Source of the DNA: a virus
Lineage: Duplodnaviria; Caudoviricetes
IMG/VR virus record: IMGVR_UViG_3300043414_000745
Coordinates: 1 to 50,708 of that record
Direction: 5' to 3' (one strand)
DNA length: 50,708 bases
The notes under the pieces are model-generated. The model saw only the letters and a program-made list of their open reading frames with translations, was not told where the DNA came from and searched no databases. Of this stretch, positions 8,826 through 35,740 are shown in pieces (positions within the stretch are counted from its first letter, which is position 1; each line of letters begins with the position of its first letter). The position numbers and the translations under genes were made by a program.

Positions 8826-9039
8826 GCAAGTAAGCGAGTCTTACAGAGTTTTTGCGGATTTGTAGTGTGGTTATAACGTCGAAACCTTCAAGCTTCTCTA
8901 AGTTCGGATCGAACTCGCTGGGCAAGTGGGTCTCATGTACGATAACGACCGAGGGCGGCGGCAGGTTAGGCGGCCACTCTTTTACCTTTTCACGAACGGC
9001 ATTCGTGATCTGAGTGATTCGGTCGTTTGTCTGTCTCAT
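8812..9039 (-). CDS. Hypothetical protein
   Basis: 75 aa ORF tiling the operon, directly after a -24/-12 promoter candidate. Confidence 0.6.
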   Translation of the reverse strand: MRQTNDRITQITNAVREKVKEWPPNLPPPSVVIVHETHLPSEFDPNLEKLEGFDVITTLQIRKNSVRLAYLHEPL

Positions 9040-9057: not shown

Positions 9058-9073
9058 AGCTTTTCTTGGGCCG
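9058..9073 (-). promoter_or_regulatory. Sigma54-type -24/-12 promoter candidate
   Basis: Minus strand CGGCCCAAGAAAAGCT (GG-N10-GC); intergenic; near-copy of the 13408 site. Confidence 0.75.
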
Positions 9074-10069: not shown

Positions 10070-10072
10070 AAG

Positions 10073-10918
10073 TTAAACATCCTCACGCCATCCAATAAAC
10101 GACGCATTGAACGGGCGACCGTCGTCTGTGAGGTTGAGATACTTGATCGTCGCTTTCTTTTGGAAGTGATAATTGGGCGCGATAAACTCCTCGCGCTCTT
10201 CATCGGTGAAGCCCGTGCCGACTTCGAACGTCACGCCCCTTGAGGTGATGAACTTAAGTGCGCCTAGTTTACCCTTGCACTTGCCTTCGTCAGACATCAC
10301 TCGACCAATGCACTCGAACTCCGCATCGAGGAAAGCTTTGCGCTTCTGAAGGTTCATCGTCGAGCGTTCTTTCTCGCCCTGTGGCATATAGGATCCGAAG
10401 ACACTCTTGAGCATCTGGCCTTCATAGTTAAGGGCGAGATACTTTTCATAAGCCTTATCGAGTTCGATGCGTGACTTGCAGATTTCCCAGTCGATAAGAT
10501 ACATTCCGAAGGAAGTGTGATCATCACGGAGAATCTTGTCTAGCATAAGCATACGCGTCATGGCGTTGAACTTAGGCTCTACGATGTCGAATGCGTTGAA
10601 GGTTATCTTCTGGGCATTGGGGCCGGGATATATGCGAGTGACGGCCACTGCGCTATTGATAGACTGAAGGCTCATGCCGTGACAATACAACTCGCCGTCG
10701 ATGATATAGTCTGTCTTTGGCGAATTGATGTAGCGGAGAACTTGATTGTTCCAACGCTTGCCGTCTCGTGAATAAAAGCCTTGGCCGGGAAGATACATAC
10801 ATCTTAGGCCGTTAAGCTTTGGCATTGAGATCACGTGGCCGAACTTCGATGCGTCATATACGGCGGCGCGCATGAACGAGGCTGCGATTGATTCGTCTTT
10901 TATTTTAATATCTTGCAT
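10073..10918 (-). CDS. ATP-dependent DNA ligase (minimal NTase plus OB fold)
   Basis: Motif I PKLNGLRC, III IDGELY, IIIa FNAFDI, IV EGQMLK, V LQKRK; OB-fold VGTGFTDEER. Confidence 0.92.
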   Translation of the reverse strand: MQDIKIKDESIAASFMRAAVYDASKFGHVISMPKLNGLRCMYLPGQGFYSRDGKRWNNQVLRYINSPKTDYIIDGELYCHGMSLQSINSAVAVTRIYPGPNAQKITFNAFDIVEPKFNAMTRMLMLDKILRDDHTSFGMYLIDWEICKSRIELDKAYEKYLALNYEGQMLKSVFGSYMPQGEKERSTMNLQKRKAFLDAEFECIGRVMSDEGKCKGKLGALKFITSRGVTFEVGTGFTDEEREEFIAPNYHFQKKATIKYLNLTDDGRPFNASFIGWREDV

Positions 10919-10930
10919 AGTTTTGTTAAA

Positions 10931-12361
10931 TTAATATTCCCAAATCCACTGTTGAAATCCTAACATACCCTTTAGCTTAACCATACGACGCATCTCGAAG
11001 ATCACATCAATGGCTACGTTCTTAGGGTGCTTGATCTTGATCTTATAGAGAGCATCCCCAGCGACCGAGGGTGCGCCTTTGTCTGTTGTTTTCTCGGCCT
11101 TGTAGTGCATTTGACCATGAAGATATTTCACTACTTGATCCGGACTGCCGGGATTAAGGTCAAAGCCTACGAGAATTCTCAAGACGCGATTGAGCTGTTT
11201 GTATCTCTCTTCACAGCGTCTGACGATATAACCCCGCTTGACGGGATCGAAGTGCATTCCGTGGAGGGACATGAAGGCATAGTCTGCGAGGGATTGACTA
11301 GCTTGATCGACCGAGTCTTGAAGTCCACGGTCCCTTGAGATGAGATCAATCTGACCGTAGTAAATTTCTCGGAGGACAATAACGTCTTTAACATTGTAAG
11401 CGCGGAGCTGCTCAAATTGTGCTCTATTTCTAGGATCAAAGTTTCCTGCTTCATCTTTATGAAAGGGCCTGTTAGAAAAAAGCGTTGTTTGATGGGCCAG
11501 AGACTTCTCAGCCTCCGGAAAGATTCGATGGCCCGCGACCATGGTGTCATAGATATCATGGCCGAATGGGATTTTGTAGAAGGCTGCGAGAAAGCATAAG
11601 TCAAATAGAGCATTGTGAATTACTACGCGGCGCTTCTTCATCTCTCTTATGAAGCGAGCAAAGAAAACCACACCAACATTAAGATTGCCACCCCAATCAT
11701 ACACGGGAACAGAATAAACAGGGCTATCTCCGCATGCGATGGCGAGACAGGTGAGGGTGTTGGTCTTGGGGTGAGTCTCAATGTCGAAGAAGATTGGACC
11801 TTCGTGGTCGAAGACACGACAGGCGTCTTCTGCTCGATGGCAGTTGTAGACTTGGGGTTCAGGTTGAACTTTTTGGGGGTCATATGTTAGGAGTTTCTTT
11901 ACGTCTTGCGCGAACCAAAAGCTATAGTTAGATCGTTTCGTCGGGCTTGTGCTTTTGCCATCGTCTTTATCTAGGATGTCTTCGCCGTCGCCTTCGCCAT
12001 CAAGGGCATCTTCCATAGCCCACGCGTCTACGCAGTCTTGTGGCCAATAGGTTACGATGTATTGGGTTTTGTTTGTTGAGGTATAGACTACGCCGCGGAA
12101 AGCATCTAGGGTTTTATCTTTGGCGAGCGGCAGAAAGTCTAGGGCTTTAGCTCCGGCAAAGATGATCTTCTTGATTCCGCTTGGTTTGTTTGCGTTCTTG
12201 AAGAAATCGTCGGCAAAGGTTACAAAAATAGCAGATGGATTATCCAGGTCAAGATTATGATAAGCCAACACAGAACGAACAAAATCTCCGGCGGGTCCGA
12301 GAAGGATGCCGTTGTTTTCTTTATCAAATCGCGAAGGTCCATGTAGAACAAGAGCTATCAT
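10931..12361 (-). CDS. polA: DNA polymerase family A, N-terminal half: degenerate UDG-like domain, 3'-5' exonuclease and thumb
   Basis: UDG-like LHGPS...LLGPAG; ExoI FDIET, ExoII HNALFD, DTMVA, ExoIII YNVKD; thumb NPGSPDQV; ends at EMRRMVKLK. Confidence 0.88.
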   Translation of the reverse strand: MIALVLHGPSRFDKENNGILLGPAGDFVRSVLAYHNLDLDNPSAIFVTFADDFFKNANKPSGIKKIIFAGAKALDFLPLAKDKTLDAFRGVVYTSTNKTQYIVTYWPQDCVDAWAMEDALDGEGDGEDILDKDDGKSTSPTKRSNYSFWFAQDVKKLLTYDPQKVQPEPQVYNCHRAEDACRVFDHEGPIFFDIETHPKTNTLTCLAIACGDSPVYSVPVYDWGGNLNVGVVFFARFIREMKKRRVVIHNALFDLCFLAAFYKIPFGHDIYDTMVAGHRIFPEAEKSLAHQTTLFSNRPFHKDEAGNFDPRNRAQFEQLRAYNVKDVIVLREIYYGQIDLISRDRGLQDSVDQASQSLADYAFMSLHGMHFDPVKRGYIVRRCEERYKQLNRVLRILVGFDLNPGSPDQVVKYLHGQMHYKAEKTTDKGAPSVAGDALYKIKIKHPKNVAIDVIFEMRRMVKLKGMLGFQQWIWEY

Positions 12362-12833: not shown

Positions 12834-13349
12834 TTAAAATTCGCACAAGAGAGCGGCGGTACCCTTGACTTGAGAGAAGTCAAACTGGGTGTTGTATCGC
12901 TTGATGATGGCCTCTCCGTTCTCGTCGCGCTTTGCGAACTTGATATCGCGAGAGTTGGAAGGATCGTCGCTCACGTATTCCGGCTGCGACTGAACGAGCA
13001 TATTGAAGGCATGACCTTGCAGAGTGGACAACGCGTCGGCTACGTCGATGTCGCTGTAGTCTTCGGGCAAACCATCATACAGACCGATAACCTGCAGCGG
13101 CGTGGCAAGAAGTTCGAGGGCAGAGTCAACGCCATTCTTGTTCTCTAGCATGATGTACATGTTGCCCTTTGCACCGAGGGTCTTATAGGTTGTACCGGCG
13201 GCGATAGCAGTCTCGGGCGCAACTATCTCGCACTCACAGACAACCATCTTGAAACCCTTTGCACTCTGGCGCGTCTCGGTGCGATGCACGAGAACCTTAT
13301 ACACGTTGGCGGGGATGAAACCGAGCTTGACTTCTGTACCTTTTTTCAT
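12834..13349 (-). CDS. Putative single-stranded DNA-binding protein (DUF669-like)
   Basis: IPANVYKVLV...SAKGFKMVVCECEIV OB-type start; next to Sak4-like ATPase and exonuclease. Confidence 0.65.
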   Translation of the reverse strand: MKKGTEVKLGFIPANVYKVLVHRTETRQSAKGFKMVVCECEIVAPETAIAAGTTYKTLGAKGNMYIMLENKNGVDSALELLATPLQVIGLYDGLPEDYSDIDVADALSTLQGHAFNMLVQSQPEYVSDDPSNSRDIKFAKRDENGEAIIKRYNTQFDFSQVKGTAALLCEF

Positions 13350-13707: not shown

Positions 13708-14418
13708 TTAAGGCTTAGCCAATTCAACAGCAATCTTATTCAACGCTTTGACAACACAATTCTCCATCGGATTAGGAAGACCCCAGAAGATAGGAGTCTT
13801 TGCGGTGGTCACGCCGTCGGTCTGAGTGGCGAAGAAGTATTGTATGGTATCGCTACCTTTCTCTTTCTTTGCATACACGGACCAGACCGCGAGACACTCT
13901 GACTCGATGCCTTTGTTCGCCCACTCTTTACCTTGCACGTAGAGACGGCGACGAGTTGTCATACTGCCGTCGAGGCCTTGGATTGGGACAATTTCCTCTA
14001 ACCCCGTAATGATGACTGTCTTATCTAGCGACTTGAGATTCGTACACAAGGTCTGGATTCCATCATTGTAGTTCTTCCAGATATCAAACCCTTTGTACAT
14101 CATCTCGCACTTGACCTGAAGCTGGTCGATGGCGGCGGTGATAGAGTCGATCACGACCAGATCTTTCGTCGTGTCTTTCTTGATCTTGTTCAGCTCGACC
14201 GTGAGCTTATCATAGCTGTCGATCGGAATGACCAGTCCTTCAGTGCGCACTCGAAAGGGCATACCTTTACGCTCGGCATCGAGGATAACTGTTCGCGTGG
14301 GATCTACGTTACGGAAGGATGTAGACTTGCCGCAGCCGCTCGGACCGACGAGAGCGATCAGGGTCTTGGGCCATTGAGGTTTTGGAGTTGGGATTGTTGG
14401 GGATGTTGTAGTTTCCAT
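13708..14418 (-). CDS. AAA_24/Sak4-like ssDNA-annealing ATPase
   Basis: GPSGCGKS, ILDAE, VVIDSIT, TAKTP; synteny with PD-(D/E)XK exonuclease and SSB. Confidence 0.8.
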   Translation of the reverse strand: METTTSPTIPTPKPQWPKTLIALVGPSGCGKSTSFRNVDPTRTVILDAERKGMPFRVRTEGLVIPIDSYDKLTVELNKIKKDTTKDLVVIDSITAAIDQLQVKCEMMYKGFDIWKNYNDGIQTLCTNLKSLDKTVIITGLEEIVPIQGLDGSMTTRRRLYVQGKEWANKGIESECLAVWSVYAKKEKGSDTIQYFFATQTDGVTTAKTPIFWGLPNPMENCVVKALNKIAVELAKP

Positions 14419-14438: not shown

Positions 14439-15365
14439 TTACCAAGAAAGGGGTTCGTACTTTACGATGTCGCACTCAGACAGGAAGAGTTCGACTTGCG
14501 TAGCGTTGTCTGCAAAGCATAGACGCTTGAACGGGCACGAAGGACAGGCGTTGATGAGCTTGCCACTAGGCGGCGGGAGCTTATCTTTTGCCATCGCATT
14601 GTTGATGTCTTGAGAGAACAGAACGATGTTCTTCTCTAGCTCCTTGCCGAACTCTTCTAGTTGTTCGCCGGAGAAACTCCAGTCGGGACCGACGCGCCAA
14701 GCTGGAGCGGGCAAGGATATCTGAACGACCAGAGTACGGATCACCATGCGGCGATACCATGCAGCGTTGGCGTAATTGATATCGTCTTTGAAGATATCAT
14801 AGGCAAACTTTTGGAAGATGTAATAGTAATAAGAGAACTGCGTGTCGCCTTCGTAGCCCGCGACTGCGTCCTTGAATGCGTACTTGCGCGTGGTCTTATA
14901 GTCGGTGATCTGAAGGATTCCGGCCGGGGTTATAGAGAGAAGATCTACGGTGCCGACATAGGCAAAGCCCGGACGTTCTAGGTGAGGAAAGTTAAAGTGC
15001 AACTCTGCGCCTCGGAGGTCGCCGAACTTAAGCGGCGTGGGAAGTTGTTGCAGAGGCGCGGCGGTCAGAGCTTTCTTGATCTGATCTTGATCCTTCGCAG
15101 AGAGATTCTTCTCCTTAGCTTCTTTGAACGCGGCGAGACATGCATCTTGCCATGCTTCTCCGCTGCGGTCAAAGGCTATGTTCTCTGCGAACTTGTGAAT
15201 GATCTTACCGACAGTGAGAGCAGTGATGTCTTGCTTCGGCTTGAGGCCGAGGAAGACTGTGAGAAACCAACGGCGCGGACAAGCTGCGATCTTTAGACCA
15301 GATGCGTTGATGGGAATGACGGCGGGGATTCCTTTGTGAGGTAGGTCTTGATAGGTTAGTTGCAT
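14439..15365 (-). CDS. Cas4/RecB-like PD-(D/E)XK exonuclease
   Basis: CPRRW, GKIIH, GTVDLL...TDYKT, and CPSCPFKRLC (four-Cys Fe-S pattern). Confidence 0.88.
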   Translation of the reverse strand: MQLTYQDLPHKGIPAVIPINASGLKIAACPRRWFLTVFLGLKPKQDITALTVGKIIHKFAENIAFDRSGEAWQDACLAAFKEAKEKNLSAKDQDQIKKALTAAPLQQLPTPLKFGDLRGAELHFNFPHLERPGFAYVGTVDLLSITPAGILQITDYKTTRKYAFKDAVAGYEGDTQFSYYYYIFQKFAYDIFKDDINYANAAWYRRMVIRTLVVQISLPAPAWRVGPDWSFSGEQLEEFGKELEKNIVLFSQDINNAMAKDKLPPPSGKLINACPSCPFKRLCFADNATQVELFLSECDIVKYEPLSW

Positions 15366-15429: not shown

Positions 15430-15831
15430 TTACTTAGCCCTCTGGCCGAGCTTATACGTGCGCTGCTCGCTTTCGTCAGCTAGGCCTTGAAGGAAGTTTA
15501 TTGTTCCAGAAGATGCACCTTTGCAGCAGTTATCTACTTCCTTCTGGATGCGCGCTTCTACTTCAAGGAAAATCTTAGGCCATTTGTTGAGCGGCTCTAG
15601 GTCACAGAGCCACTTCGCAAGATCGGCGGCTTTGATGTTGCCGTCTGAGATGTTCGGAGATTCGCCCAGTCCGATCATTCGCTCGATGACTCCATCGTAA
15701 GCTGTCTCGTAGGTTCCATACAGATCCCCAAGGAACTCATGATCCTCGAAGAACGTAGGGCCTTGAACGGTGTTGTGTTTTTCATGCGCGGTAAGTTGGG
15801 CCGCGCGGAATAATGTAGCTAGATTGTGCAT
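15430..15831 (-). CDS. Ferritin/Dps-like protein
   Basis: AHEKHNTVQGPTFFEDHEFLGDLY...DGVIERMIGLG matches Dps ferroxidase-region motifs; start moved to the ATG at 15831. Confidence 0.8.
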   Translation of the reverse strand: MHNLATLFRAAQLTAHEKHNTVQGPTFFEDHEFLGDLYGTYETAYDGVIERMIGLGESPNISDGNIKAADLAKWLCDLEPLNKWPKIFLEVEARIQKEVDNCCKGASSGTINFLQGLADESEQRTYKLGQRAK

Positions 15832-15847
15832 TGTATGAGAAAGAAAA

Positions 15848-15929
15848 GAAGCTACCCGATGCGCGTCCCTAGGGGAAACCATTATGAAACCCTATTGCAA
15901 GAACAGCTTGCAACGCACCGAGTAGCTTC
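15848..15929 (-). ncRNA. Three-way-junction RNA structure followed by a U-tract
   Basis: 16-bp closing stem (two G-U on minus strand) enclosing TTGCAAG/CTTGCAA and TAGGG/CCCTA hairpins. Confidence 0.5.
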
Positions 15930-16446
15930 AAAGATTATTTTTATATTTGAAAGTAAAGCCAAAGCATTTTTGGCCTCGCTTAATTCTGTGAGAAACTGCC
16001 GAAGGATTGAGTCCTAATGCTAAGGACGCTTCTTTGGAGGAAGCATACTCTTCGCCAGTTTCTACACATATCACAGATTTCTGTAAATGTTTTCCAGCAT
16101 TAGGATAAGTAGTTTTAGATCGATTTTGATTGTTCTCTAAACATGTTACAAAACGGCAGTTACTAGGTTCGTAGTTACCATCATTATTTATGCGATCTAA
16201 TTGAAGACCTCGTTCAAATCCATTAGCTGTTGCCCACTTTGCAAAAGCCTGGAAGTTGTTTACCCATTCATGGCAGACTGTTATACCTCTACCACCATAA
16301 CGATTCCAGCTTTTGTAAGCTGGGTATTTACAACGCATAATCATACAACGATAAACATTATAGAGTGGTGTTTCTTTTCGAGCTTTCGTGCAAGGAAACC
16401 ACGATTGCTCAAATGTTATAGAAATTTTTGCGTTGATGTTAAACAT
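15928..16446 (-). CDS. Free-standing HNH homing endonuclease with NUMOD1-like C-terminus
   Basis: MIMRC...YGGRGITVCHEW...LDRINNDGNYEPSNCRF...NNQNR; VICVETGEEYASSKEA; more AT-rich than its neighbours. Confidence 0.9.
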   Translation of the reverse strand: MFNINAKISITFEQSWFPCTKARKETPLYNVYRCMIMRCKYPAYKSWNRYGGRGITVCHEWVNNFQAFAKWATANGFERGLQLDRINNDGNYEPSNCRFVTCLENNQNRSKTTYPNAGKHLQKSVICVETGEEYASSKEASLALGLNPSAVSHRIKRGQKCFGFTFKYKNNL

Positions 16447-16891: not shown

Positions 16892-17312
16892 ATAGGTTTG
16901 TAAATCTGTCCGCTCTTTGTCTGATAGTGCTTGGGAGTTTAGCAAGAGTGTAACCTCTGCGAGAGTAAGCTGCAAGTCCAATATTCCACGCGGCGTAAAC
17001 ATCCTGTGGGTTTGGATGCTTTGTTTTTTTGAGGAGACATAGCTTGAGTTCAAGCCAGCATAGATGCGCTTTAGCGCAGCGCCTTGCTTCTGCTGGAACA
17101 TGGCGCATATCTTTCTCGTCAGGGAAATGCTGTCGCCAGACGGCGCGTTTGATTTGATAGCGTGAGAGTTCACCGTGTCGGCCTTTGGCTTTGTCATTGT
17201 CGTTGCTTTCGATCTGGCTAATGGCTCGGAGCTTTGCTTCAAAGTCTTGATGCAGCGCAATGAGTGTTGTTTCTGTGGCGAGGATTGTTATGGCTAGCAT
17301 GAGAGATTTCAT
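16866..17312 (-). CDS. Lysozyme-like/lytic transglycosylase protein with N-terminal hydrophobic segment
   Basis: AISQIES (catalytic Glu), GELSRYQI, YAAWNIG; hydrophobic N-terminus MKSLMLAITILAT. Confidence 0.75.
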   Translation of the reverse strand: MKSLMLAITILATETTLIALHQDFEAKLRAISQIESNDNDKAKGRHGELSRYQIKRAVWRQHFPDEKDMRHVPAEARRCAKAHLCWLELKLCLLKKTKHPNPQDVYAAWNIGLAAYSRRGYTLAKLPSTIRQRADRFTNLYEDYRNHQ

Positions 17313-17722
17313 AGCGGTGGCCAGAAGTAAGGTAGATTGTCGGGTATGTTTGGAAAGTGTGGTCTATAGTAGTCTGCTTTCTTGCGGATCAGATTACTCT
17401 GATGTGTCTTGTGTAGATAACAGCCGAGCCAGTGTGGCTGGATGACGTAAGGATATGTTAGGATCTCTCGTTCAAAGTGAGGCAGGAGATTGTCAACGTA
17501 GCCACGCCGACGGGCTTCTTGACAGATCTTGATGGAGTAAAGACATAGCCAAGCTTGATAGTTTTTGACCATGCGCACGGCGGGATGGCTAGCCCAACCG
17601 CTTGACTTACCTTGTAGGGTGTTGAGGATTTGATAGCTCTCGACACGCTGTTTCATGAGCCGCTGGGTATCGAGGACGCGGGCAGACTGTTCGATGTCTG
17701 CGTAGGGTAGGAAGATTTGCAT
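17309..17722 (-). CDS. Pyrimidine-dimer DNA glycosylase/endonuclease V family
   Basis: MQIFLPY...SARVLD..RL.KQRVE..QIL...W..HPAV.M...HQSNL.RK..YY. Confidence 0.88.
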   Translation of the reverse strand: MQIFLPYADIEQSARVLDTQRLMKQRVESYQILNTLQGKSSGWASHPAVRMVKNYQAWLCLYSIKICQEARRRGYVDNLLPHFEREILTYPYVIQPHWLGCYLHKTHQSNLIRKKADYYRPHFPNIPDNLPYFWPPL

Positions 17723-19933: not shown

Positions 19934-20137
19934 TTATTCTTTAACCTCCACAATAAAATCAAAGTTCATTTGCCAACTATCACTCAGTCTGTTATATGTT
20001 TCCTTACCTATCTTCCATGTTCTTGGATCTCTTTTAGATTTGGTATGTCTACATTGTATAGTTACAGTATCCATATCTTTGAACGCCTTGTTTCTTAGCG
20101 TGTGATCGGGCGGCAGTTCATGCAGTTTGTATAGCAT
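19934..20137 (-). CDS. Hypothetical protein
   Basis: 67 aa ORF tiling the operon. Confidence 0.55.
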   Translation of the reverse strand: MLYKLHELPPDHTLRNKAFKDMDTVTIQCRHTKSKRDPRTWKIGKETYNRLSDSWQMNFDFIVEVKE

Positions 20138-20960
20138 ATTCAGGTAGTTCTAGTTCTCCGAGTTCTCTCTTTAGGAGAAGGTTTCTTAGAGCTCGAACAT
20201 TCCCAAAGGAGAATGTCTCGTCGCCGAAGTGTTCGCGCTCGCCAATAGGTGTCCAGTTTTCTTCTTCGATGATAGCCGCTGCGACACATCTGATCTCTTG
20301 AACTCCGCGATCCTTCAAGCTGAATGTCTTCAGCCCGAGTTCGTTGATGCGGAAGTAAAGATCCTCTCTGAACGTGCCTTCCTTTACCATCTTCAACAAG
20401 TCACGATTTGTGGCGAACACGAACCTACATTGAATAGGCACAGGATCGACCGCGCCCACTGGAAGTACGGTCTTGTCTTGTAAGACACGCAAGAGTTTTG
20501 CTTGATGCGCGAGAGGCAACTCGCCTATCTCGTCGAGGAAAGCAGTGCCCTTGCCGACTGCTCTTAGGAAGCCTACGTCGCCCCGTGATTTAGCGCCGGT
20601 AAAAGCGCCGGGCATGTAGCCAAAGAGTTCGCTTTGAAATAGAGTGTCTGTCAGACCAGCCATGTTCATAGCCTTGAGAGGCTTGCGCTTGTGTGATAAG
20701 ATGCGGGCGAGAAGCTCCTTGCCTGTGCCGCTTGGCCCTTCGATGAGTACGTTATAGCGTTGAAGACTTTCTTCGGCGTAGGTTATTGCCGACGTGAGCA
20801 TTCTCTTTGTCGCCGGGTCTTGCGTCGCGTAGGACGATGCGACATTGTGGATACTGTTCTCTTTGAGAGAGTCGCCTGTGATCTTAAGGACGTCCTTCCG
20901 TATGTTATCGAGGAAGCTATCGGCGGCCGAGGTATTGAGTACGTTTGCGTGGATGTTCAT
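20118..20960 (-). CDS. Sigma54 activator (bacterial enhancer-binding protein AAA+ domain only)
   Basis: VLIEGPSGTGKELLAR, SELFGYMPGAFTGA, FLDEIGEL..AHQAKLLRVLQ, FATNRDL, FREDLYFRI, GNVRALRN; no receiver, GAF or HTH domain. Confidence 0.96.
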   Translation of the reverse strand: MNIHANVLNTSAADSFLDNIRKDVLKITGDSLKENSIHNVASSYATQDPATKRMLTSAITYAEESLQRYNVLIEGPSGTGKELLARILSHKRKPLKAMNMAGLTDTLFQSELFGYMPGAFTGAKSRGDVGFLRAVGKGTAFLDEIGELPLAHQAKLLRVLQDKTVLPVGAVDPVPIQCRFVFATNRDLLKMVKEGTFREDLYFRINELGLKTFSLKDRGVQEIRCVAAAIIEEENWTPIGEREHFGDETFSFGNVRALRNLLLKRELGELELPEYAIQTA

Positions 20961-21148
20961 TTCTTTTTCTTTGTTTTATTTTTCTTAGGTTTCTTCTTAT
21001 AGATACTAGGACCGGGATCTCTTAGCTTATACTTCATGATCGCCTTGCGCGCCGCGGCCATCTCTTCTTTGTCTAGGTAGGCCTCATCGAGAGATCCGAG
21101 TTTGATCTTTGCTTTATACTGTTCACCCTTTTGGTGGAAGGCACTCAT
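20957..21148 (-). CDS. Small basic hypothetical protein
   Basis: 63 aa with Lys-rich tail; ATGA-coupled on both sides. Confidence 0.65.
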   Translation of the reverse strand: MSAFHQKGEQYKAKIKLGSLDEAYLDKEEMAAARKAIMKYKLRDPGPSIYKKKPKKNKTKKKK

Positions 21149-21429
21149 TTTCTTTTTAGTTTTAGGATTTCGTTTTGTAGTTTGAAGATAGTGTCGCCTG
21201 CTTTGTTGAGTTGATTAAGTAACTCACTGATCTTTCTCTCATAGTGTTCACGCTTGATGGGCGCGCTATGGATGTTATAAACTATGGTGCGCGACACGCC
21301 GAAGTGCTCTGCGATTTTAACTTGTGGCATATCAGGATGCGCTATCACATAATCTCTGATCTCTTGCTTCTGCTCGGGCGTGAGATAGTAGTTCTTGCGC
21401 GCTAGGTTTGTTATCTTTTTTTCGTACAT
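21145..21429 (-). CDS. HTH DNA-binding protein with C-terminal coiled coil
   Basis: LTPEQKQEI...PQVKIAEHFGVSRTIVYNI followed by Leu heptads. Confidence 0.8.
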   Translation of the reverse strand: MYEKKITNLARKNYYLTPEQKQEIRDYVIAHPDMPQVKIAEHFGVSRTIVYNIHSAPIKREHYERKISELLNQLNKAGDTIFKLQNEILKLKRK

Positions 21430-23908: not shown

Positions 23909-24509
23909 TTTCTTGGTGGTTATTATTTAATGACTCTATGACACCGCGAGTGTCTACGATCTTGATTACTTCTTCGATGGGAAAGTAGCAGTTGATGTTG
24001 TTGAATGCGCCTTTGAGGGCTTCGTTAAGTTGTTTTGATTTATGCAAGTAGACTTCTTCACCTTGGCTTGTGATTGCAATGGCAACTTCTGTTGCCTTCT
24101 GCCGCGTGAAGAGCTTTGCGCGAGAGAGACTGTCGCCGATGAGTTCGATGCGGAGTTCTTCCGCTTTCTTCCTGATGTAGGAAACATCAGAGGCAATGTG
24201 GTTTGCACGTAGAAGTCTCCTTCTTTCATCTGACAAGGCCCATTCGGTTGCATCCCACACGACAGAGTAGTTGTGTCCATCTTCTTCGATTCTCTGAATA
24301 TGGATATGCTCACCTGCGCAGTGAGCTTTGACCCACTCGGCTGTTTCATTTGAAGCAACAATCGCATGGGCAAGATTATTCCCTGGAGTTCTGCGGATGA
24401 AATGCCCTCGCTCTGCATCGACATGACAAGAACACGCTGGGAAGAGCAATCCCCAGAGTTGATAGCTGTTGAGTTTTTCTGGTTCTTCATGAGAGTTTTC
24501 ATTTTGCAT
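23799..24509 (-). CDS. Hypothetical protein
   Basis: 236 aa ORF directly after rpoN; its low-complexity tail overlaps the next gene. Confidence 0.6.
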   Translation of the reverse strand: MQNENSHEEPEKLNSYQLWGLLFPACSCHVDAERGHFIRRTPGNNLAHAIVASNETAEWVKAHCAGEHIHIQRIEEDGHNYSVVWDATEWALSDERRRLLRANHIASDVSYIRKKAEELRIELIGDSLSRAKLFTRQKATEVAIAITSQGEEVYLHKSKQLNEALKGAFNNINCYFPIEEVIKIVDTRGVIESLNNNHQENEQTITEQDNQSSNEVTEEHGESGQEERLAPPTAGG

Positions 24510-25788
24510 AGACTTTACGGAGATGCGAGGGTTGAATGCCTAGCTCTGCTCTGTACTTTGCGATTGTCCGCCGGGCGATTGTGTTCTTAAGCAAGACGAC
24601 GATGTCTTCGTCGCTTAGTGGTCGTGACTTATCTTCGGTTGAGATGATCTCTGAGATTTGATTCTTTATGGATAGGTTACTTTGCATTGTGTTTTGTTCA
24701 TGGTTTACGATAGCTCCGGTGAAGAAGAAGCGAAGTTCATATGTGCCGCGCGGGGTTGAGATGTACTTATTACATACTGCCCGCGAGACGGTTGTCTCAT
24801 GGATCTCACAGACGACTGCGATCTGGGCCATCGTGAGCGGCTTGAGATCGTGGATGTTGCCGGTCTTGAAGAACTCTTGTTGAAAATCTACGATAGCCTT
24901 TGAGACATTAGCTAGTGTGCTTTGCCTCTGCATGATCGATCGGATCAGAAACTTACCGGCCTTTACTTTCTCCCGCACGAACTCTCGATCCTGTGGTTTG
25001 AGCTTGTGGAGATAGCTGAGAACGTGGCTGTTGATTCGATAGACAGGAAGACGCTCGTTGGGCAGGTTGATTGTGCCGTCGGCGAGAAGAAAGACTTCGG
25101 GATCTTTAGGGATGTTATGTGGCAGAGAGAACTCGGCAGCGGGATTATGATTGAGCTTGCGGAGTTGCCTATAGAGATTCTCTATCGTCGTGAATGTCTC
25201 GTTGTATTTCTTCGCGAGCGTGGGAATCTGGCGGCGAGTAAAGAGATCTTCGTCTTGTTGAAGAATGATATAGGCAAGTGAAGAAGTATCTAACTGAAGA
25301 CACAAGCAATCAGCTAGGCCAAGAGCACCTAGCCCTTTAGGATCGAGCGTGCGGATAAAGCGCAGAGATAATCTCTCTTGCGGCGTGAGCGTATCAGGAT
25401 CAAACGGAAAGAATCCTTTCTCGTCGAGCCGATGTATGATGTTTGTCTCCAAACCTGCGATCACTAGTTCACGCGTGAGATATTCTTCTAAGGTCTCCGC
25501 GCGACCGGGATTATTCTCTAGCGGAAACTCTTCTACATACGACGGGATCGTGTTCGATAGAGAAGTCCACTGCATGTCCGCGGGCAATTCTGCCTTGTCG
25601 TTTGCATATGATATCTCTTCTTCAGACTGATTCTGATCAAGAAATTCAACGCAAGGATTATCGTTGATGAAAGACTCCATCACGGTATGGAGTTCGCAAA
25701 GTGGAGCCTGTAATAAGGCAAGACTTTGCTGAAGTTGCGGACTCAATATCAAAGACTGAGTCTGCTTTGCAGAGATGGAAAGTTTCAT
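24499..25788 (-). CDS. rpoN: RNA polymerase sigma54 factor
   Basis: Region I QTQSLILSPQLQQSLALLQ...NPCVE; LDPKGLGA..L.DCL..Q; RQSTL; LKPLTM..IA...IHETTVSRA..NKY; PLSD; RpoN box ARRTIAKYR. Confidence 0.97.
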   Translation of the reverse strand: MKLSISAKQTQSLILSPQLQQSLALLQAPLCELHTVMESFINDNPCVEFLDQNQSEEEISYANDKAELPADMQWTSLSNTIPSYVEEFPLENNPGRAETLEEYLTRELVIAGLETNIIHRLDEKGFFPFDPDTLTPQERLSLRFIRTLDPKGLGALGLADCLCLQLDTSSLAYIILQQDEDLFTRRQIPTLAKKYNETFTTIENLYRQLRKLNHNPAAEFSLPHNIPKDPEVFLLADGTINLPNERLPVYRINSHVLSYLHKLKPQDREFVREKVKAGKFLIRSIMQRQSTLANVSKAIVDFQQEFFKTGNIHDLKPLTMAQIAVVCEIHETTVSRAVCNKYISTPRGTYELRFFFTGAIVNHEQNTMQSNLSIKNQISEIISTEDKSRPLSDEDIVVLLKNTIARRTIAKYRAELGIQPSHLRKVYAK

Positions 25789-25832
25789 TAGTGGATAAAG
25801 TGGGTTGTTTGTTTATCCTATAAAGCGAATAG

Positions 25833-25849
25833 AGCTTTAGCTGTGCCAA
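25833..25849 (-). promoter_or_regulatory. Sigma54-type promoter candidate upstream of rpoN
   Basis: Minus strand TTGGCACAGCTAAAGCT, just downstream of a terminator. Confidence 0.85.
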
Positions 25850-25892: not shown

Positions 25893-25933
25893 AAAAAGCC
25901 TCTGTCGGATGTTACTCCAACAGAGGCTTTTTT
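25893..25933. terminator. Intrinsic terminator (A/T tracts on both sides)
   Basis: AAAAAGCCTCTGTCGGA tgttac TCCAACAGAGGCTTTTTT; the wobble pair favours the minus strand. Confidence 0.88.
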
Positions 25934-25986: not shown

Positions 25987-26631
25987 TCACACAGACTTCT
26001 TCTTCGACTCGCGCTTGGCCTTCGCGGCGCTGAGTTCGTTAGCCTTCGCGAGGAGCTGGGCAAGAGAGCCGATGAGGTTAGCCTGTTTGGCGACGGCCGC
26101 TTCCTTGTCAGACACGCCCAAAGAGCGGGCAACGTCGTCGTTCCACTCGCCAGCCATTGCGAACACGATGCTGCCAATTTCAGAACGGATGGACTCGATC
26201 TTCTTGAGGACGCTCTTTTCGGTCTCGCGGTCGGCAGACACGCCATAGATGAATGCGGCGAAATAGTCCGGAGTATTTCCCTTCGACAGATAAGCTTCAG
26301 AAGCGTCTTCGGCGATATCAAGCAAGTGCTCGCTGACCAAGTCAGACAGGGCATTCGAGATGCGCTTCGTTTCAGTGACACTACCGTCTTCATTCTTCAC
26401 CTTCGTCACGTGCTCGGTCACGACTTCAGCCAACGCCTCGCCGCGCTTGATGTAATAGGACAGATCGCTCACGGCCAGAATAGGCGCTTGAAACGAGACA
26501 GTGCGCTCTGCGCTCTTTGCGGTCTTCCGAACGTGCCGCTCGTTCGTGGTGAACGAAGGGTTGCCGTCCTTATCGCTGGTGAATACGCTTCCGGCGAAGG
26601 AGGCAACGAGTTCGAGGTTCTTAGTGCTCAT
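25987..26631 (-). CDS. Hypothetical protein, monocistronic (own promoter and terminator)
   Basis: 214 aa, Ala/Lys/Ser-rich with basic C-terminus. Confidence 0.8.
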   Translation of the reverse strand: MSTKNLELVASFAGSVFTSDKDGNPSFTTNERHVRKTAKSAERTVSFQAPILAVSDLSYYIKRGEALAEVVTEHVTKVKNEDGSVTETKRISNALSDLVSEHLLDIAEDASEAYLSKGNTPDYFAAFIYGVSADRETEKSVLKKIESIRSEIGSIVFAMAGEWNDDVARSLGVSDKEAAVAKQANLIGSLAQLLAKANELSAAKAKRESKKKSV

Positions 26632-26727
26632 GTTTTATTTTATCTAATGTGTTGACTTGATTGGGATGTTTCCGGTCGCGCGACCTTAGAACATTTCACC
26701 GCTTGCCAACCTGCGGTAAAGCGATAG

Positions 26728-26744
26728 AGCTTTTGAAATGCCAA
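26728..26744 (-). promoter_or_regulatory. Sigma54-type promoter candidate
   Basis: Minus strand TTGGCATTTCAAAAGCT; shares the downstream AAAGCTCTAT(T)CGCTTTA with the rpoN promoter. Confidence 0.85.
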
Positions 26745-26759
26745 GTTATTTTTAGCATT

Positions 26760-26812
26760 AAAAAAACTCCACAAAGAGAAGCCCTCCGTGAAGGGCTTGT
26801 GCTTTGTGGAGT
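26760..26812 (-). terminator. Intrinsic terminator
   Basis: ACTCCACAAAG..AAGCCCT/AGGGCTT..CTTTGTGGAGT with a minus-strand T tract. Confidence 0.8.
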
Positions 26813-26984: not shown

Positions 26985-27245
26985 TCATGCATCTTTGATT
27001 GTTATGTTGGTTGTACCCGTTTGAAAAGATCGGCCGTTCGTGCCCTTTGCAGAGCGAGCCGTGACACGCTTATGCACCTTGAATGCATCAGGATGCATTG
27101 GCTGCACCGAGCCGCCTGTCTTGTGGCCGAAGTTGAGAGCGCCTTTGTAAGACCATTGTGGAGCGCATTTAATGCAGCGATCAAAGCCTAATGCTTTCCG
27201 GTCGATGTCGATTAGTTGTAGACATCTCAAACATCTATTAGTCAT
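26985..27245 (-). CDS. C4 zinc-finger protein (DksA/TraR-like finger spacing)
   Basis: RCLRC..LIDIDRKALG..RCIKCA. Confidence 0.65.
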   Translation of the reverse strand: MTNRCLRCLQLIDIDRKALGFDRCIKCAPQWSYKGALNFGHKTGGSVQPMHPDAFKVHKRVTARSAKGTNGRSFQTGTTNITIKDA

Positions 27246-27248
27246 ATC

Positions 27249-27383
27249 TTAAAACTCCTCATAACGTCCCATATCCCATGCACTCGAATCATCACTAACG
27301 GCCTCATCACCGTAGAGGCGAAGTTCGGCCTGTATTTCTTCGAGTTCGTCTGGTTGTTTATCTTGTGGTTCTTTGTCAGGCAT
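27249..27383 (-). CDS. Small acidic protein, 44 aa (not in ORF track)
   Basis: MPDKEPQDKQPDELEEIQAELRLYGDEAVSDDSSAWDMGRYEEF; tiles between a terminator and the next gene. Confidence 0.55.
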   Translation of the reverse strand: MPDKEPQDKQPDELEEIQAELRLYGDEAVSDDSSAWDMGRYEEF

Positions 27384-27395
27384 AATTTTTAACGC

Positions 27396-27430
27396 AAAAA
27401 AACCTTGTGCTCTTTGAAGAACACAAGGTT
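27396..27430 (-). terminator. Intrinsic terminator
   Basis: AACCTTGTGTTCTT/AAGAGCACAAGGTT stem on the minus strand followed by a T tract. Confidence 0.8.
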
Positions 27431-27497
27431 ATTGTTATATTATACTATCAAACTACTATCAAACTACTCGATCAAGGCACAACGCTGGCGCGTTGTG

Positions 27498-27686
27498 TTA
27501 ATTAGCCGCAAGCTCCATAACGTTATTCATTACGGATGTTCCGTATCTCCTGCTAAACGCTTCTAATTCACTATCATCTAGTGAGTTGACGTAAAGTATA
27601 CACGCGTTAATTGCTAGTGCTTCTTCGGGAAGCATTGTATCATTTAACACTGCAGTTTTTAAGATTTCTGTAATTTTGTTTTTCAT
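27498..27686 (-). CDS. Hypothetical protein
   Basis: Short AT-rich ORF MKNKITEILK... Confidence 0.5.
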   Translation of the reverse strand: MKNKITEILKTAVLNDTMLPEEALAINACILYVNSLDDSELEAFSRRYGTSVMNNVMELAAN

Positions 27687-27802
27687 ATTAATTATCAAAG
27701 CAAACGATTGCTTTTACGAAATACCAAAGTGCAATGAACATTACAACGGAACCGATTGTGGCGATAATTATCTCGCCTAGTTTGTGTTGTTTGTTTGTCA
27801 TA

Positions 27803-28030
27803 TTAGATCCAATCTATACGTGAGAGTTTAACTAAGGAAGACGATACTGCGAAAGTGCCTTTCATGCGCCAAGCACGTGCCTTGTGGCATGAGTGATTGT
27901 CTTTCTTTGCAGCACGTTTGGACGTGTACTTTATAGCAAGCTTGTTGAGAAGCTTTGTGGCTTGTGATGCGCGGAGATGAGTTTGAGCCTGCAATGATTT
28001 ATCAAATGCGGCAGTCGGATTGGAACGCAT
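27803..28030 (-). CDS. Hypothetical basic protein (start uncertain)
   Basis: MRSNPTAAFDK... within ORF 27803..28132. Confidence 0.45.
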   Translation of the reverse strand: MRSNPTAAFDKSLQAQTHLRASQATKLLNKLAIKYTSKRAAKKDNHSCHKARAWRMKGTFAVSSSLVKLSRIDWI

Positions 28031-28556
28031 AGTTTCTAGGATTTGACGGTGGGAATTGAGAGGATAACTTAGAGGATAAGAGAAGAAAAGAAGACTACAG
28101 AGGATAATCAAATCCCAGAAACTATGCGTCATTGTGTGGTAAGTTCTTCGCGCCTATTTATAAATAGGTTAGCAAATAGTAACCCACACATAACGCTTTT
28201 GTGTCTAATGTTGTGTCTGCAACAATATCACATAAGAGCTTGCGTGTTGTGTTGGCTCGTGACGTAACGACTCACGTCGAATAGCTATTGTACAACAGAG
28301 GGAAGCAGGCCAGTTTTGCTAGACGTGAAAAGTGCATGGACTATGCGTGAACGTCTAGACGCTGGATCGGTTTTGCTTGTGGTTTGTGTCCGGTGTAACG
28401 CGAACAACTAACAAGCAAACCATGCAAAGCGTGACGCTTCCGCGAGATTGTGGCTTGTGATGCTTGTGTCTCGCGAGTATAAATCACGGACAGGCCGCAC
28501 AAGTGACACTTGGCTTTGCAAATATGTAAAAAGAAACGCTACACGACAGAATAAAT

Positions 28557-28611
28557 CCGGGCAGCAAAAAGGAAGGCTCTTTGACCAGAGCCTTCGTGTT
28601 TTGCTGTCTGG
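28557..28611. terminator. Long hairpin/terminator after the first early gene
   Basis: CCGGGCAGCAAAA..GAAGGCTCT ttgacc AGAGCCTTC..TTTTGCTGTCTGG. Confidence 0.75.
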
Positions 28612-28613
28612 CG

Positions 28614-28925
28614 TTATTCGATAGCGTTGACGGCCTTGACTGCTGCAACGGCTTTCAGGTGAGCAAGGAAAGCCTCTTCCATGGCCGCAAGGGCAACAAG
28701 CCGTTGGTAATCCTTGCGGATAGCCGTTGGAATGATCGCGGCCGTTTTCCAAACTGTTCCGGTGACACGGGCACGGGCAGCTGCACGGCCTTTGTCCGAA
28801 GCCGCATCGGAAATAAATTTTTCGGCATCGGTGACTGCATTACCGCTTTCAGCCATAAAGGCCGTCACTGCCCGGGCTTGGTCAACGAAAGGCAGAGTTT
28901 GGTAGTTTTTGGAGTCAATGGTCAT
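28614..28925 (-). CDS. First leftward (putative immediate-early) protein, Ala-rich
   Basis: MTIDSKNY..., 103 aa; flanked by a promoter candidate and a terminator. Confidence 0.7.
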   Translation of the reverse strand: MTIDSKNYQTLPFVDQARAVTAFMAESGNAVTDAEKFISDAASDKGRAAARARVTGTVWKTAAIIPTAIRKDYQRLVALAAMEEAFLAHLKAVAAVKAVNAIE

Positions 28926-29061
28926 ATTAGTGTGAGTTAGTGCCTGCCCGTCTAGCGGGCTTTTTGTTAAAATTGACTGGTCACTTTTCAACAGGTCGCA
29001 AAAAGCGAGTGAAAAAACGAGACTGTCAACCTGTTGCGCTATCGCACAACGAGACCAGTGC

Positions 29062-29078
29062 AGCACTCACGATGCCAA
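29062..29078 (-). promoter_or_regulatory. Sigma54-type promoter candidate for the first early gene
   Basis: Minus strand TTGGCATCGTGAGTGCT. Confidence 0.75.
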
Positions 29079-29131
29079 CCGGCCAAAACGCCAAAACCCC
29101 AATGAATAACGATAACGTAAAATTCACAGAA

Positions 29132-29219
29132 TGCGTGAGATTCACGCACCATGCGTCAAATTCACGCTTTAACGTTATTCATTGGCATTTAACGCCTATA
29201 AATGCGTCAAATTCACGCA
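29132..29219. promoter_or_regulatory. Three 17-bp palindromic sites, putative enhancer (UAS)
   Basis: TGCGTGAGATTCACGCA (29132), TGCGTCAAATTCACGCT (29152), TGCGTCAAATTCACGCA (29203). Confidence 0.7.
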
Positions 29220-29639
29220 TAACGCATAAACGCACAGAAAGGGCCCGCCAGCGCGTTTTCCCTTCAAATGGCTATCTACACTCCAAAACGCTATCAAAAC
29301 GCCTAGAAACAGGCTTTAAACGCCAGCAAACGCTATTCACGGCAACAGACGACAAGGCAAAACACAAGAAAACAAGTGTAAACGATCCCAGGTAAACATT
29401 ACACTTGTAATCTTGTCAACCAGCAGAGCAAAAAAGCGCAGAAAACAGGGAAAACAGGCTCTTAACTCAGTTAAAACGATAATTGTAATATAATATGGTT
29501 AATGCACTTGGCATGGGGGGTACCCATTTATTTTTTATATTATATACTATATATTAACCTTAACCAACAAGACGATACGTTATTCAAGCTAATAAAGACA
29601 CAAGCCCAATTTACCCAATAGGCAATAACCATATTAAAG

Positions 29640-29825
29640 TGTCAAATTTAGTGTTTTACACCCGCCAAACTCACTAAATTAGTGTTTAACATATCCTTTT
29701 ACTATAGTATTATTCAACTATACAATCAATCACTCATATTTAAATACAATAACCGCTATCCTAATAGCCCTATTGTATTTCAATAGCCGCTATTGTACAA
29801 CAAGCCCTATCCTAATACAACAACG
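29640..29825. repeat. Degenerate direct repeats in an AT-rich tract (origin or packaging-site candidate)
   Basis: AAATT(T)AGTGTTT twice; CTATCCTAATA twice; CTATTGTA twice. Confidence 0.55.
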
Positions 29826-29922
29826 AAGGCCCGTAATTTTCGCGCGATGTCCGAACATGACCGCTTCCACATTTTATACATTTTTTGGGGTTTAAAAGTG
29901 TATTGTTTTATTGTTTGTTTTA

Positions 29923-29938
29923 TGGCATTAGACAAGCT
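29923..29938 (+). promoter_or_regulatory. Sigma54-type promoter candidate for the packaging operon
   Basis: TGGCATTAGACAAGCT, 15 nt before the terS ATG. Confidence 0.8.
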
Positions 29939-29952
29939 TTAGCCCTTTTATA

Positions 29953-30519
29953 ATGAGTGACCTAATGATGCGTAATCAGATTTTGGGGTTAAGGCGGGCC
30001 GGAATGTCTGTTGAAGAGATTTCTGTGGCGCTTGAGATAGACGTTATGGTGGTTAAGCTTGCCTTGGAGGCGCCAGGTGGAAGCGTGGCTGTGAGGAAAG
30101 AAGCCCGTGCGGAAAAAGAAGAAGACATAACCGACGACGTATCCGAACAAGAAGCTAAGGAGATGATGGGCATCATCAAGAACATAGCGCGCGACGAAGA
30201 GAGCGGCGTATATGCCCGGCTGAACGCGGCTAAGTATGCGCACGGCGCCAAGCGAGGTTATCATAAGCGGCATCTGGATATGAACGTAGGCTCGGGCGAA
30301 TTGCTGCTTAAGATCAACGAAGCCTATATGTCCGCGTCTATGCGTGCACGGGCAGCCTTAACTGGCCAATCACTTACCGCCAAAGAACTCACCGTCATAG
30401 AGGCCCCAATAACCGTAGAGGCGAACGCTGTAGAACCTATTGTAGAACCCCAGCTAATCGATCAGACTACGCAATCACAGCCTGCGGCGCTGAATCCCGG
30501 CCCTTTAAAATATGATTAA
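29953..30519 (+). CDS. Putative terminase small subunit
   Basis: N-terminal HTH (LRRAGMSVEEISVALEI); overlaps the terL start. Confidence 0.65.
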   Translation: MSDLMMRNQILGLRRAGMSVEEISVALEIDVMVVKLALEAPGGSVAVRKEARAEKEEDITDDVSEQEAKEMMGIIKNIARDEESGVYARLNAAKYAHGAKRGYHKRHLDMNVGSGELLLKINEAYMSASMRARAALTGQSLTAKELTVIEAPITVEANAVEPIVEPQLIDQTTQSQPAALNPGPLKYD

Positions 30520-35724: not shown

Positions 35725-35740
35725 TGGCATATCGTTAGCA
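35725..35740 (+). promoter_or_regulatory. Sigma54-type promoter candidate for the capsid operon
   Basis: TGGCATATCGTTAGCA in the scaffold-capsid gap. Confidence 0.85.

Follow-up and report, generated by a model that had tools for sequence, protein, structure and literature searches.

We show that a gene of the bacteriophage genome IMGVR_UViG_3300043414_000745 (IMG/VR; Duplodnaviria, Caudoviricetes) encodes a sigma-54 activator with neither a regulatory domain nor one that binds DNA, and that its product is, by every sequence and fold criterion applied, a genuine member of the bacterial enhancer-binding protein (bEBP) family. The stretch analysed, hereafter the window, is the entire record of 50,708 bases, which is rated 100% complete and represents the whole genome, ~50.7 kb, of a freshwater phage; the activator gene, the only one in it with a PF00158 domain, lies on the minus strand at 20118..20960. 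The best-supported mechanism, to which we assign a probability of about 0.7 from sequence, modelling and analogy with characterized proteins, is that of a free-standing AAA+ motor that would act from solution on sigma-54 closed complexes. Action from solution appears well supported because of the anatomy of the protein and its comparison with known activators.

The activator protein and its lineage

20118..20960, minus strand: minimal sigma-54 activator (bEBP) gene, ATG start, 280 amino acids (aa), identified by PF00158, motifs, AlphaFold2 model and VIA-align

The Pfam search placed Sigma54_activat (PF00158) at residues 48-210 of the activator (E 1.9e-49; 168 bits, the cut-off being 20.2), and the further matches were generic AAA models overlapping this domain. 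At E<=1 there was no HTH_8, Response_reg (receiver), GAF, PAS, V4R or other sensor domain, and AAA_lid_14 was also undetected at this threshold despite a short helical lid. The NCBIfam matches, all far under their equivalog cut-offs, were to the central parts only of PrdR, RtcR, PrpR, AtoC, NorR, NifA and NtrC, and the PHROGs match was phrog_7998, which has no function assigned there. The motifs of the family are present throughout, with catalytic roles that we assume by analogy with PspF: Walker A (GPSGTGKE, residues 75-82), the GAFTGA loop (L1, which contacts sigma-54 region I; residues 118-123), Walker B (FLDEIGE, residues 141-147), FREDLYFR (residues 197-204) with arginine fingers R198 and R204, and sensor II (GNVRALRN, residues 253-260) with R256.

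An AlphaFold2 model built on a 35-sequence family alignment (predicted local distance difference test, pLDDT, 87.3; predicted template modelling score, pTM, 0.79) begins with a long helix at residues 10-34, for which the pLDDT is a modest 58-69 or so, and a short helix at 37-42, continues with a complete AAA+ domain (residues ~39-276) and has coil at 267-280. The best Foldseek matches of this model in the PDB were all central domains of bEBPs (E about 1e-20). VIA-align superposed residues 39-276 on FleQ 142-393 with Z 26.0 and a root-mean-square deviation (rmsd) of 2.0 A over 230 aligned residues; Z was 23-25 for FlrC, NtrC1, ZraR, LuxO and PspF 7-251 (about 23 for PspF), and the rmsd was 2.0-2.5 A for the AAA+ domains of FleQ, FlrC, NtrC1 and PspF. 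According to the model, therefore, the AAA+ domain is complete and nothing folded is left over beyond one N-terminal helix. When the model (residues 5-273/274) was superposed on inactive NtrC4 and NtrC1, this helix fell at the position of the receiver-AAA+ linker, although at an rmsd of 8-10 A its position is comparable and its orientation is not. The linker of NtrC4 and NtrC1 serves regulation.

These results bear out the sequence-only reading of the gene, which had proposed about 45 residues ahead of the AAA+ domain and an end about 20 residues past sensor II, with no Fis-type helix-turn-helix (HTH). The first segment measures about 40-47 residues by the Pfam start and the VIA-align superposition, and 20 residues were counted after sensor II. 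The domain search and structure prediction that it had called for returned an AAA+ core only, with all catalytic and sigma-54-contact motifs intact, and the DNA-binding domain that would have spoken against it was detected neither in the activator nor in any of 35 aligned family members (35/35) or of eight distant viral members (8/8). The protein thus has the PF00158 profile, the GAFTGA loop, the motifs of ATP hydrolysis and the central-domain fold, including the helical lid, by which bEBPs, of AAA+ clade 6, are recognized, and has neither the C-terminal Fis-type HTH nor the N-terminal regulatory domain of a canonical three-domain bEBP such as NtrC, DctD, NifA or XylR. By comparison, a full-length NtrC-type protein of 438 aa (P0041) has a receiver at residues 8-118, AAA+ at 142-308, a lid at 314-396 and HTH_8 at 400-437, and could be aligned with the activator over 162-366 only. 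A cryptic basic DNA-binding stretch is disfavoured because both ends of the activator are slightly acidic (net charge -1 in the N-terminal 47 residues and -2 in the C-terminal tail).

The architecture is shared by a family. Residues K81, E82, N99, G118, D143, E144, T184, R198, R204 and R256 are invariant in 35/35 short family members, and F120, T121, G122 and A123 are retained in at least 90% of them. In a search of 5.8 billion proteins, the best 31 matches in the 154-490 aa class were 189-298 aa long, 42-97% identical to the activator and without HTH_8 or receiver; the first full-length NtrC-type protein was 43% identical, and among the best matches listed for proteins of 491-2000 aa identity was at most 55%, over part of the core. 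In IMG/VR there are 29 close loci, with activators 92-96% identical, and four more at 56-62%; the activator open reading frames (ORFs) in 30 related loci are 269-287 aa long. One relative is G001, a complete 49.8 kb genome with terminal repeats that is syntenic with the window over 28 ORFs at 26-73% identity, and in which a 287-aa activator (62% identical) follows directly after the helicase gene. A profile-guided scan for more distant relatives found 359 viral stretches, from which 79 loci were kept. The 46 new ones comprised 35 complete short ORFs (235-355 aa), seven complete long ORFs (435-611 aa) and four cut by the end of the locus, the lengths being upper bounds since the first start codon was taken. 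All eight distant short forms scanned with Pfam had AAA-type matches only.

In an AAA+-core tree (130 rows, 230 columns, quick IQ-TREE), 63/63 short HTH-less forms fell on one side of a branch with a Shimodaira-Hasegawa-like approximate likelihood ratio test (SH-aLRT) value of 99, and 67/67 full-length or long forms, including the seven long forms from viral contigs, fell on the other. On this evidence the short activators are a coherent lineage carried on ~50 kb viral contigs; their origin lies outside what the tree shows because it is unrooted and its bacterial rows are the best matches of the query. There was no close copy of the activator in bacterial species genomes (the best of 80 loci was 55% identical, in the core only), and no prophage copy of the family was seen among these 80 loci, whose titles are those of ordinary bacterial assemblies. 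A tblastn search of GenBank phages with the activator and the phage sigma-54 (see below) gave no convincing relative and nothing above 50% identity; the phage records matched were mostly bacterial-looking DNA (with annotations such as zraR, prpR, glnG and rpoN), unannotated fragments and metagenomic 'Bacteriophage sp.' entries, and were set aside.

The activator gene is under strong purifying selection: in comparisons with six relatives, synonymous to non-synonymous codon differences were between 84:14 and 127:19. Close relatives share 95% identity in the core, 90% in the N-terminal 47 residues and 67% in the tail.

Sigma-54 genes and sigma-54-type promoters

24499..25788, minus strand: phage sigma-54 gene, 429 aa, with Pfam domains Sigma54_AID, Sigma54_CBD and Sigma54_DBD
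29923..29938, plus strand: P1, predicted sigma-54-type promoter TGGCATTAGACAAGCT, 15 nucleotides (nt) ahead of ORF 29953, where the rightward structural block begins
35725..35740, plus strand: P2, predicted sigma-54-type promoter TGGCATATCGTTAGCA, preceding ORF 35741-37192; identical in G003 and G004
26728..26743, minus strand: P3, predicted sigma-54-type promoter TGGCATTTCAAAAGCT, upstream of the 214-aa ORF 25987-26631
25833..25848, minus strand: P4, predicted sigma-54-type promoter TGGCACAGCTAAAGCT, upstream of the sigma-54 gene by 45 nt from the start codon
13408..13423, minus strand: P5, predicted sigma-54-type promoter TGGCCCACGAAAAGCT, in a gap of 76 nt that precedes ORF 12834-13349
14578..14593, minus strand: P6, predicted sigma-54-type promoter TGGCAAAAGATAAGCT, within the gene for the exonuclease and ~160 nt ahead of the Sak4-like gene 13708-14418
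9058..9073, minus strand: P7, a candidate CGGCCCAAGAAAAGCT before small ORF 8812-9039 and the primase gene; 17.2 bits by position weight matrix (PWM)
25893..25927, minus strand: predicted intrinsic terminator (hairpin and T-run) ending 45 nt upstream of P4, RNAfold -27.7 kcal/mol
26760..26811, minus strand: predicted intrinsic terminator ending 17 nt upstream of P3, RNAfold -26.4 kcal/mol

The phage sigma-54 has matches to Sigma54_AID (region I) at residues 5-48 (E 2.3e-12), the core-binding Sigma54_CBD at 95-254 (E 2.8e-17) and the DNA-binding Sigma54_DBD at 269-425 (E 2.2e-48). In 21/29 close loci there is a sigma-54 gene some 4-5 kb upstream of that for the activator, the remaining eight having less than 3 kb of upstream sequence, and the full-length matches are 73-81% identical where the activators are 92-96% identical. 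Metagenome protein sets contain more than 100 versions of this sigma-54, from near-identical to 73% identical, many of them on contigs of ~50 kb.

Beyond the close relatives the sigma-54 gene becomes rare. G001 has none (no PF04552 candidate; tblastn E>1), and among 25 further records the Pfam cut-off was passed in four only, namely G006, G007 and G030, which belong to the window's own clade, and G012. The sigma-54 of G012 (L173, 2730-4196; 488 aa) is 34% identical to that of the window, and the activators of the two are 43% identical, which suggests either a second acquisition or a very old split. The gene is absent from 15/16 distant short-form records that are at least 90% complete, or from 16/17 with G001. 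Judged from gene content, it is the activator, rather than the phage sigma factor, that makes up the conserved core in this phage lineage. Since most of its members have no sigma-54 gene, the activator must be able to work with host sigma-54, and for this reason cross-activation of host sigma-54 promoters is likelier than the sequence-only reading had assumed.

The proposal that this phage has sigma-54 promoters of its own is supported by a set of -24/-12 elements that accompanies the sigma-54 gene. At least six promoters of type TGGCAY-N5-AAGCT are predicted in the window (P1 to P6). The pattern TGGCMY-N5-WAGCW occurs five times where 0.28 are expected, a count reached in 0/100 shuffles, although the pattern was derived from the sites later counted and the shuffle test is thus post hoc. 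The five sites (P1-P5) are all intergenic and directed at the next gene. P5 has the best PWM score (22.8 bits), and P6 and P7 rank next after P1-P5, P7 being weaker with CGG in place of TGG. All six positions (P1-P6) are conserved in G004 and 5/6 in G003, where P1 is unmatched. At the position equivalent to P1, G001 has a canonical TGGCATTAGGCTTGCA, and the ORF behind P2 is 73% identical to a 433-aa ORF of G001. The consensus of the phage promoters departs from the canonical one at -12 (AAGCT). The canonical TGGCAC-N5-TTGC has no exact occurrence in the window and, with two mismatches allowed, occurs 20 times against 26.5 expected, so that it was not enriched. P3, P4 and, less clearly, P1 also share sequence past the -12 element, AAGCTCTAT(T)CGCTTTA, and this extended likeness (25822-25848, 26717-26743 and 29923-29950) reaches to about the expected start site.

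The distant relatives were scanned in 24 short-form loci, of which 21 remained once three near-duplicates had been dropped. On the strand of the activator gene, which in these loci also carries most other genes, a degenerate sigma-54 pattern matched 72 times against 14.6 expected (maximum 26 in 30 shuffles), and on the opposite strand 13 times against 16.9 expected. Of the gene-strand matches, 41/72 are intergenic, while intergenic DNA makes up 10.7% of the sequence, and many read TGGCAYG-N4-TTGCT. A near-canonical sigma-54 promoter (e.g. TGGCATGGAAAATGCT) is also found within about 30 nt past the activator stop codon in relatives that have no sigma-54 gene (L141 at 10742, L147 at 10717, L150 at 10646, L152 at 10742, L154 at 10634 and L158 at 10641).

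The position of the activator gene relative to P4 bears on how it is expressed. From P4 a gap-free string of genes runs through sigma-54, a 236-aa ORF, a small ORF, helicase, orf94, orf63 and the activator and beyond, and the stretch between P4 and the activator gene contains no convincing terminator and no PWM site of at least 12 bits. The activator and the phage sigma-54 would thus be co-transcribed from P4. A comparable site, TGGCACAAGCTAAGCT, lies upstream of the orf210-helicase-activator string of G001. Because the activator gene is apparently in a P4-headed operon, the arrangement would be one of positive feedback and not the simple unregulated expression that had been supposed. The best candidate for a sigma-70 promoter of this operon was TTGACA-N16-TATTGT (23724-23697, inside a small ORF), which was rejected because it varies among 12 relatives in step with the third positions of codons. 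Sigma-70-like sites in the window number 21, against 16.7 +/- 3.7 in shuffles.

The sequence-only reading had also argued that most phage promoters leave no room for enhancers. This stands for P2, P3, P4 and P5, which are tight (gaps of 27 nt for P2 and 76 nt for P5), and fails for P1, which has about 530 nt of non-coding DNA upstream. Enhancers can also lie inside genes, and lack of room is weak evidence in any case. A search of the 240 nt upstream of P1-P6 for k-mers of 7-10 nt (at most one mismatch, either strand) found none common to them beyond shuffles, with the low power of six sequences and mononucleotide shuffles.

Mode of action and its alternatives

In the mechanism that we favour, the activator would form the usual hexameric ring and meet RNA polymerase-sigma-54 closed complexes by collision from solution rather than from an enhancer. 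Its GAFTGA loops would engage sigma-54 region I, and ATP hydrolysis would then open the promoter. The targets would be the phage -24/-12 promoters before the structural, capsid, recombination/replication and sigma-54 operons, with timing set mainly by the amount of activator accumulated and not by a signal-sensing domain. With both activator and phage sigma-54 in it, the P4 operon would sustain itself by positive feedback once host sigma-54, or transcription that passes the terminators upstream, had primed it. The activator of most relatives would use the sigma-54 of the host.

Known proteins provide precedents for parts of this scheme. As described in PMC3844500, DctD250, an AAA+-only fragment of Sinorhizobium meliloti DctD (residues 141-390), activates sigma-54 promoters in both Salmonella and E. 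coli with no need of an enhancer, and PMC7482065 describes the same for the ATPase domain of CtcC alone. These fragments have the architecture of the phage activator and the mechanism proposed for it, and are presented in these sources as constitutive, promiscuous and active from solution. They differ in being laboratory truncations, whereas the phage activator is natural, under selection, provided with a dedicated promoter set and in possession of an N-terminal helix. Natural bEBPs that have lost one domain are summarized in a 2020 review (PMC7175178), with PspF and HrpR/S listed as lacking the regulatory (R) domain and FlgR and CtcC as lacking the DNA-binding (D) domain. The phage activator resembles PspF and HrpR/HrpS in having no N-terminal sensor domain, so that control of their kind, if any, would come from a protein in trans. 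It differs from PspF, which according to the same review is enhancer-bound and carries a C-terminal HTH, in ending 20 residues past sensor II. With FlgR of Helicobacter and CtcC of Chlamydia, as described in PMC7175178 and PMC7482065, it shares the absence of an HTH, but those proteins keep a phosphorylatable receiver and the phage activator has none.

The closest natural parallel is FleT of Cereibacter (Rhodobacter) sphaeroides, given in the review as the only known natural bEBP without both R and D domains and described in PMC7277832 as working in complex with FleQ. The phage activator likewise lacks both domains. FleT, however, has its DNA-binding partner in the same genome, while the phage has a single PF00158 gene, and the phage activator belongs to a separate lineage on viral contigs (FleT being set apart here by description, not by sequence). 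An architecture previously known in nature only from FleT, according to the review (PMC7175178, 2020), is thus found in a whole phage lineage, which is large and seems not to have been described before. A bEBP-like AAA+ protein encoded by a phage, Htm/Gp204, reportedly reprograms the transcriptome of the host (bioRxiv 10.64898/2026.10.06.757011). Its core is similar to those of RtcR, PspF and NtrC, and like the present activator it has no C-terminal DNA-binding domain. In the description of its authors Htm/Gp204 has no GAFTGA loop, a changed Walker B and, at the N terminus, a NusG-like domain of 80 aa, whereas the activator described here has a canonical GAFTGA loop and Walker B, in a phage with a sigma-54 gene and promoters. 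Searches of open-access literature, which leaves most subscription journals uncovered, found no description of a sigma-54 encoded by a phage, of a phage activator with GAFTGA or of a phage take-over that works through sigma-54.

Several points weigh against action from solution or against the claim that the activator is constitutive. ATP hydrolysis, ring formation, contact with sigma-54 and use of the promoters are all deduced from motifs, fold and sequence patterns. The N-terminal helix must have some function because it is 90% conserved among close relatives, and this function could be regulatory; the activator could thus be regulated by its own helix or by a partner acting in trans. Activation from solution is also weaker than activation directed by an enhancer, to judge from DctD250, which PMC3844500 describes as about ten-fold weaker than activated NtrC, and a phage that relies on it might thus have to express the activator very highly or tether it by a partner. 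If expression of the activator gene depends on P4, the loop must be primed in some other way, and the scan of the window found no convincing sigma-70 promoter ahead of the activator operon. Both the post hoc nature of the shuffle test and the low power of the search for upstream motifs count on the same side. Finally, in the window's clade, orf63 or orf94 could supply the contact with DNA that the activator itself appears to lack.

20957..21148, minus strand: orf63, 63 aa, net charge +13 with a Lys-rich tail; 4-nt overlap between its stop and the activator start
21145..21429, minus strand: orf94, 94 aa, C-terminal heptad-like stretch (by eye), weak generic HTH signals

This last point leads to the alternative that survives best, although we consider it unlikely, namely that the activator is one part of a split enhancer-binding protein, in which the core is tethered or regulated by orf63, orf94 or a PspA-like host protein. 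Its attraction lies in the gene arrangement, as orf94, orf63 and the activator gene each overlap by 4 nt, and in the small proteins themselves. The strongly basic orf63 product belongs to a conserved family (19 sequences with 16 invariant columns) with homologues in 26/29 close loci, and orf94 has several sub-threshold Pfam matches at about residues 31-55 (UPF0122, HTH_11, HTH_7, Sigma70_r4 and HTH_23; E 0.003-0.02). A conserved N-terminal helix that overlays the receiver-AAA+ linker of NtrC4 and NtrC1 would suit such control, and proteins that bind in trans are described as regulators of PspF and HrpR/S (PMC7175178). Against this alternative, neither orf63 nor orf94 is present in the relatives G001, L031 or L032, which have no sigma-54 and in which the activator gene follows directly after the helicase gene; L021-L024 have an extra small ORF between the orf63 homologue and the activator gene; and orf94 identity is as low as 36-59% in phages that share activators at 92-96%. 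Nor did the k-mer search find a common motif upstream of the promoters. Complex prediction for the activator with orf63 scored 0.00, which speaks neither for nor against binding. Members of the orf63 family are 57-63 aa long, share the invariant motifs GS..E.YL and YKL.D, end in a poly-Lys tail and, in most close relatives, are encoded directly upstream of the activator gene.

A second alternative, which we regard as improbable, is that the activator is directed at the host and mainly fires or jams the genes under sigma-54 control there (nitrogen, envelope stress, RNA repair, motility). A sigma-54 gene is absent from most relatives, so that their activator would meet the sigma-54 of the host; the AAA+-only activator of PMC3844500 is described as promiscuous on host promoters; and the effect reported for Htm/Gp204 (bioRxiv 10.64898/2026.10.06.757011) is on the host transcriptome. 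The sigma-54-type promoters before phage operons, with conserved positions and a strong bias towards the coding strand and intergenic DNA, argue against this alternative, although effects on the host may occur as a side activity. Least probable of all is a FleT-like co-activator that joins a DNA-binding activator of the host in mixed rings and redirects or boosts it, for which FleT, without R and D (PMC7175178) and acting with FleQ (PMC7277832), is the precedent, since a phage with one PF00158 gene would have to find its partner in the host, the lineage spans many divergent phages, the promoters have no common upstream site for a DNA-binding partner, and the AAA+ core alone is described as sufficient in DctD250 and CtcC (PMC3844500, PMC7482065).

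Taking activator, promoters and sigma-54 genes together, we lean, with little more than even confidence, towards a wider reading, in which there is a widespread group of uncultured ~50 kb freshwater-type phages. Their middle and late transcription would be run by sigma-54, an ancestral enhancer-independent AAA+ activator would normally hijack host sigma-54, and at least two sublineages, the window's clade and G012, would have added a sigma-54 of their own. Textbook sigma-54 transcription is defined by the need for an activator bound at a distant enhancer. Sigma-54-based phage transcription, mostly on host sigma-54, would be a more surprising result than the architecture of the activator. If the wider reading is true, the window phage has a self-contained, self-amplifying module of sigma-54 and activator, which would match in nature the engineered 'promiscuous constitutive' activators and add a new class to the ways in which phages take over transcription. 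If the mechanism is true, a minimal solution-acting activator suffices for a complete gene-expression programme, a strategy of phage take-over through sigma-54 is revealed, and compact orthogonal sigma-54, activator and promoter parts become available, with and without a dedicated sigma factor. We predict that such phages depend on host rpoN, which in the many relatives without sigma-54 could determine the range of hosts and open a way to resistance.

The phage genome and its surroundings

Sequencing runs with near-identical or related DNA come from freshwater, river, lake, drinking-water and wastewater metagenomes. In one metatranscriptomic library, contigs of relatives extend over the activator, helicase and sigma-54 genes; contigs do not reveal transcription, its starts or its strand, carry-over of DNA is possible there, and the library was not used as evidence. 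Megablast of the 6 kb around the activator gene against cultured phages in GenBank gave no match, and neither did ORF 35891-37192 against GenBank phages. A tRNA scan of the phage genome found none.

The genes directed rightward include tail fibre-like and beta-helix proteins, and those directed leftward a helicase, a primase, a Sak4-like protein, a PD-(D/E)XK exonuclease, an HNH endonuclease and a pyrimidine-dimer glycosylase. In the replication/recombination block of the minus strand there is a ferritin-like (Dps-type) gene at 15430-15882, followed by the HNH endonuclease gene at 15928-16446 and the T4 endonuclease V-like pyrimidine-dimer glycosylase gene at 17309-17722. A family A DNA polymerase (9077-12361, minus strand) is split into two ORFs, of which 10931-12361 encodes the exonuclease and the N-terminal part of the polymerase and 9077-10069 the C-terminal part; a gene for an ATP-dependent DNA ligase (10073-10918) lies between them, and the order is the same in G001. 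Between the two gene blocks, the stretch 27174-29675 is AT-richer (GC content 0.43 at 28001-30000) and poorly conserved. Runs with related DNA give little or no cover at 28008-28841, contigs carry other sequence in place of 27188-27803, and 27174-29675 may represent a variable early region.

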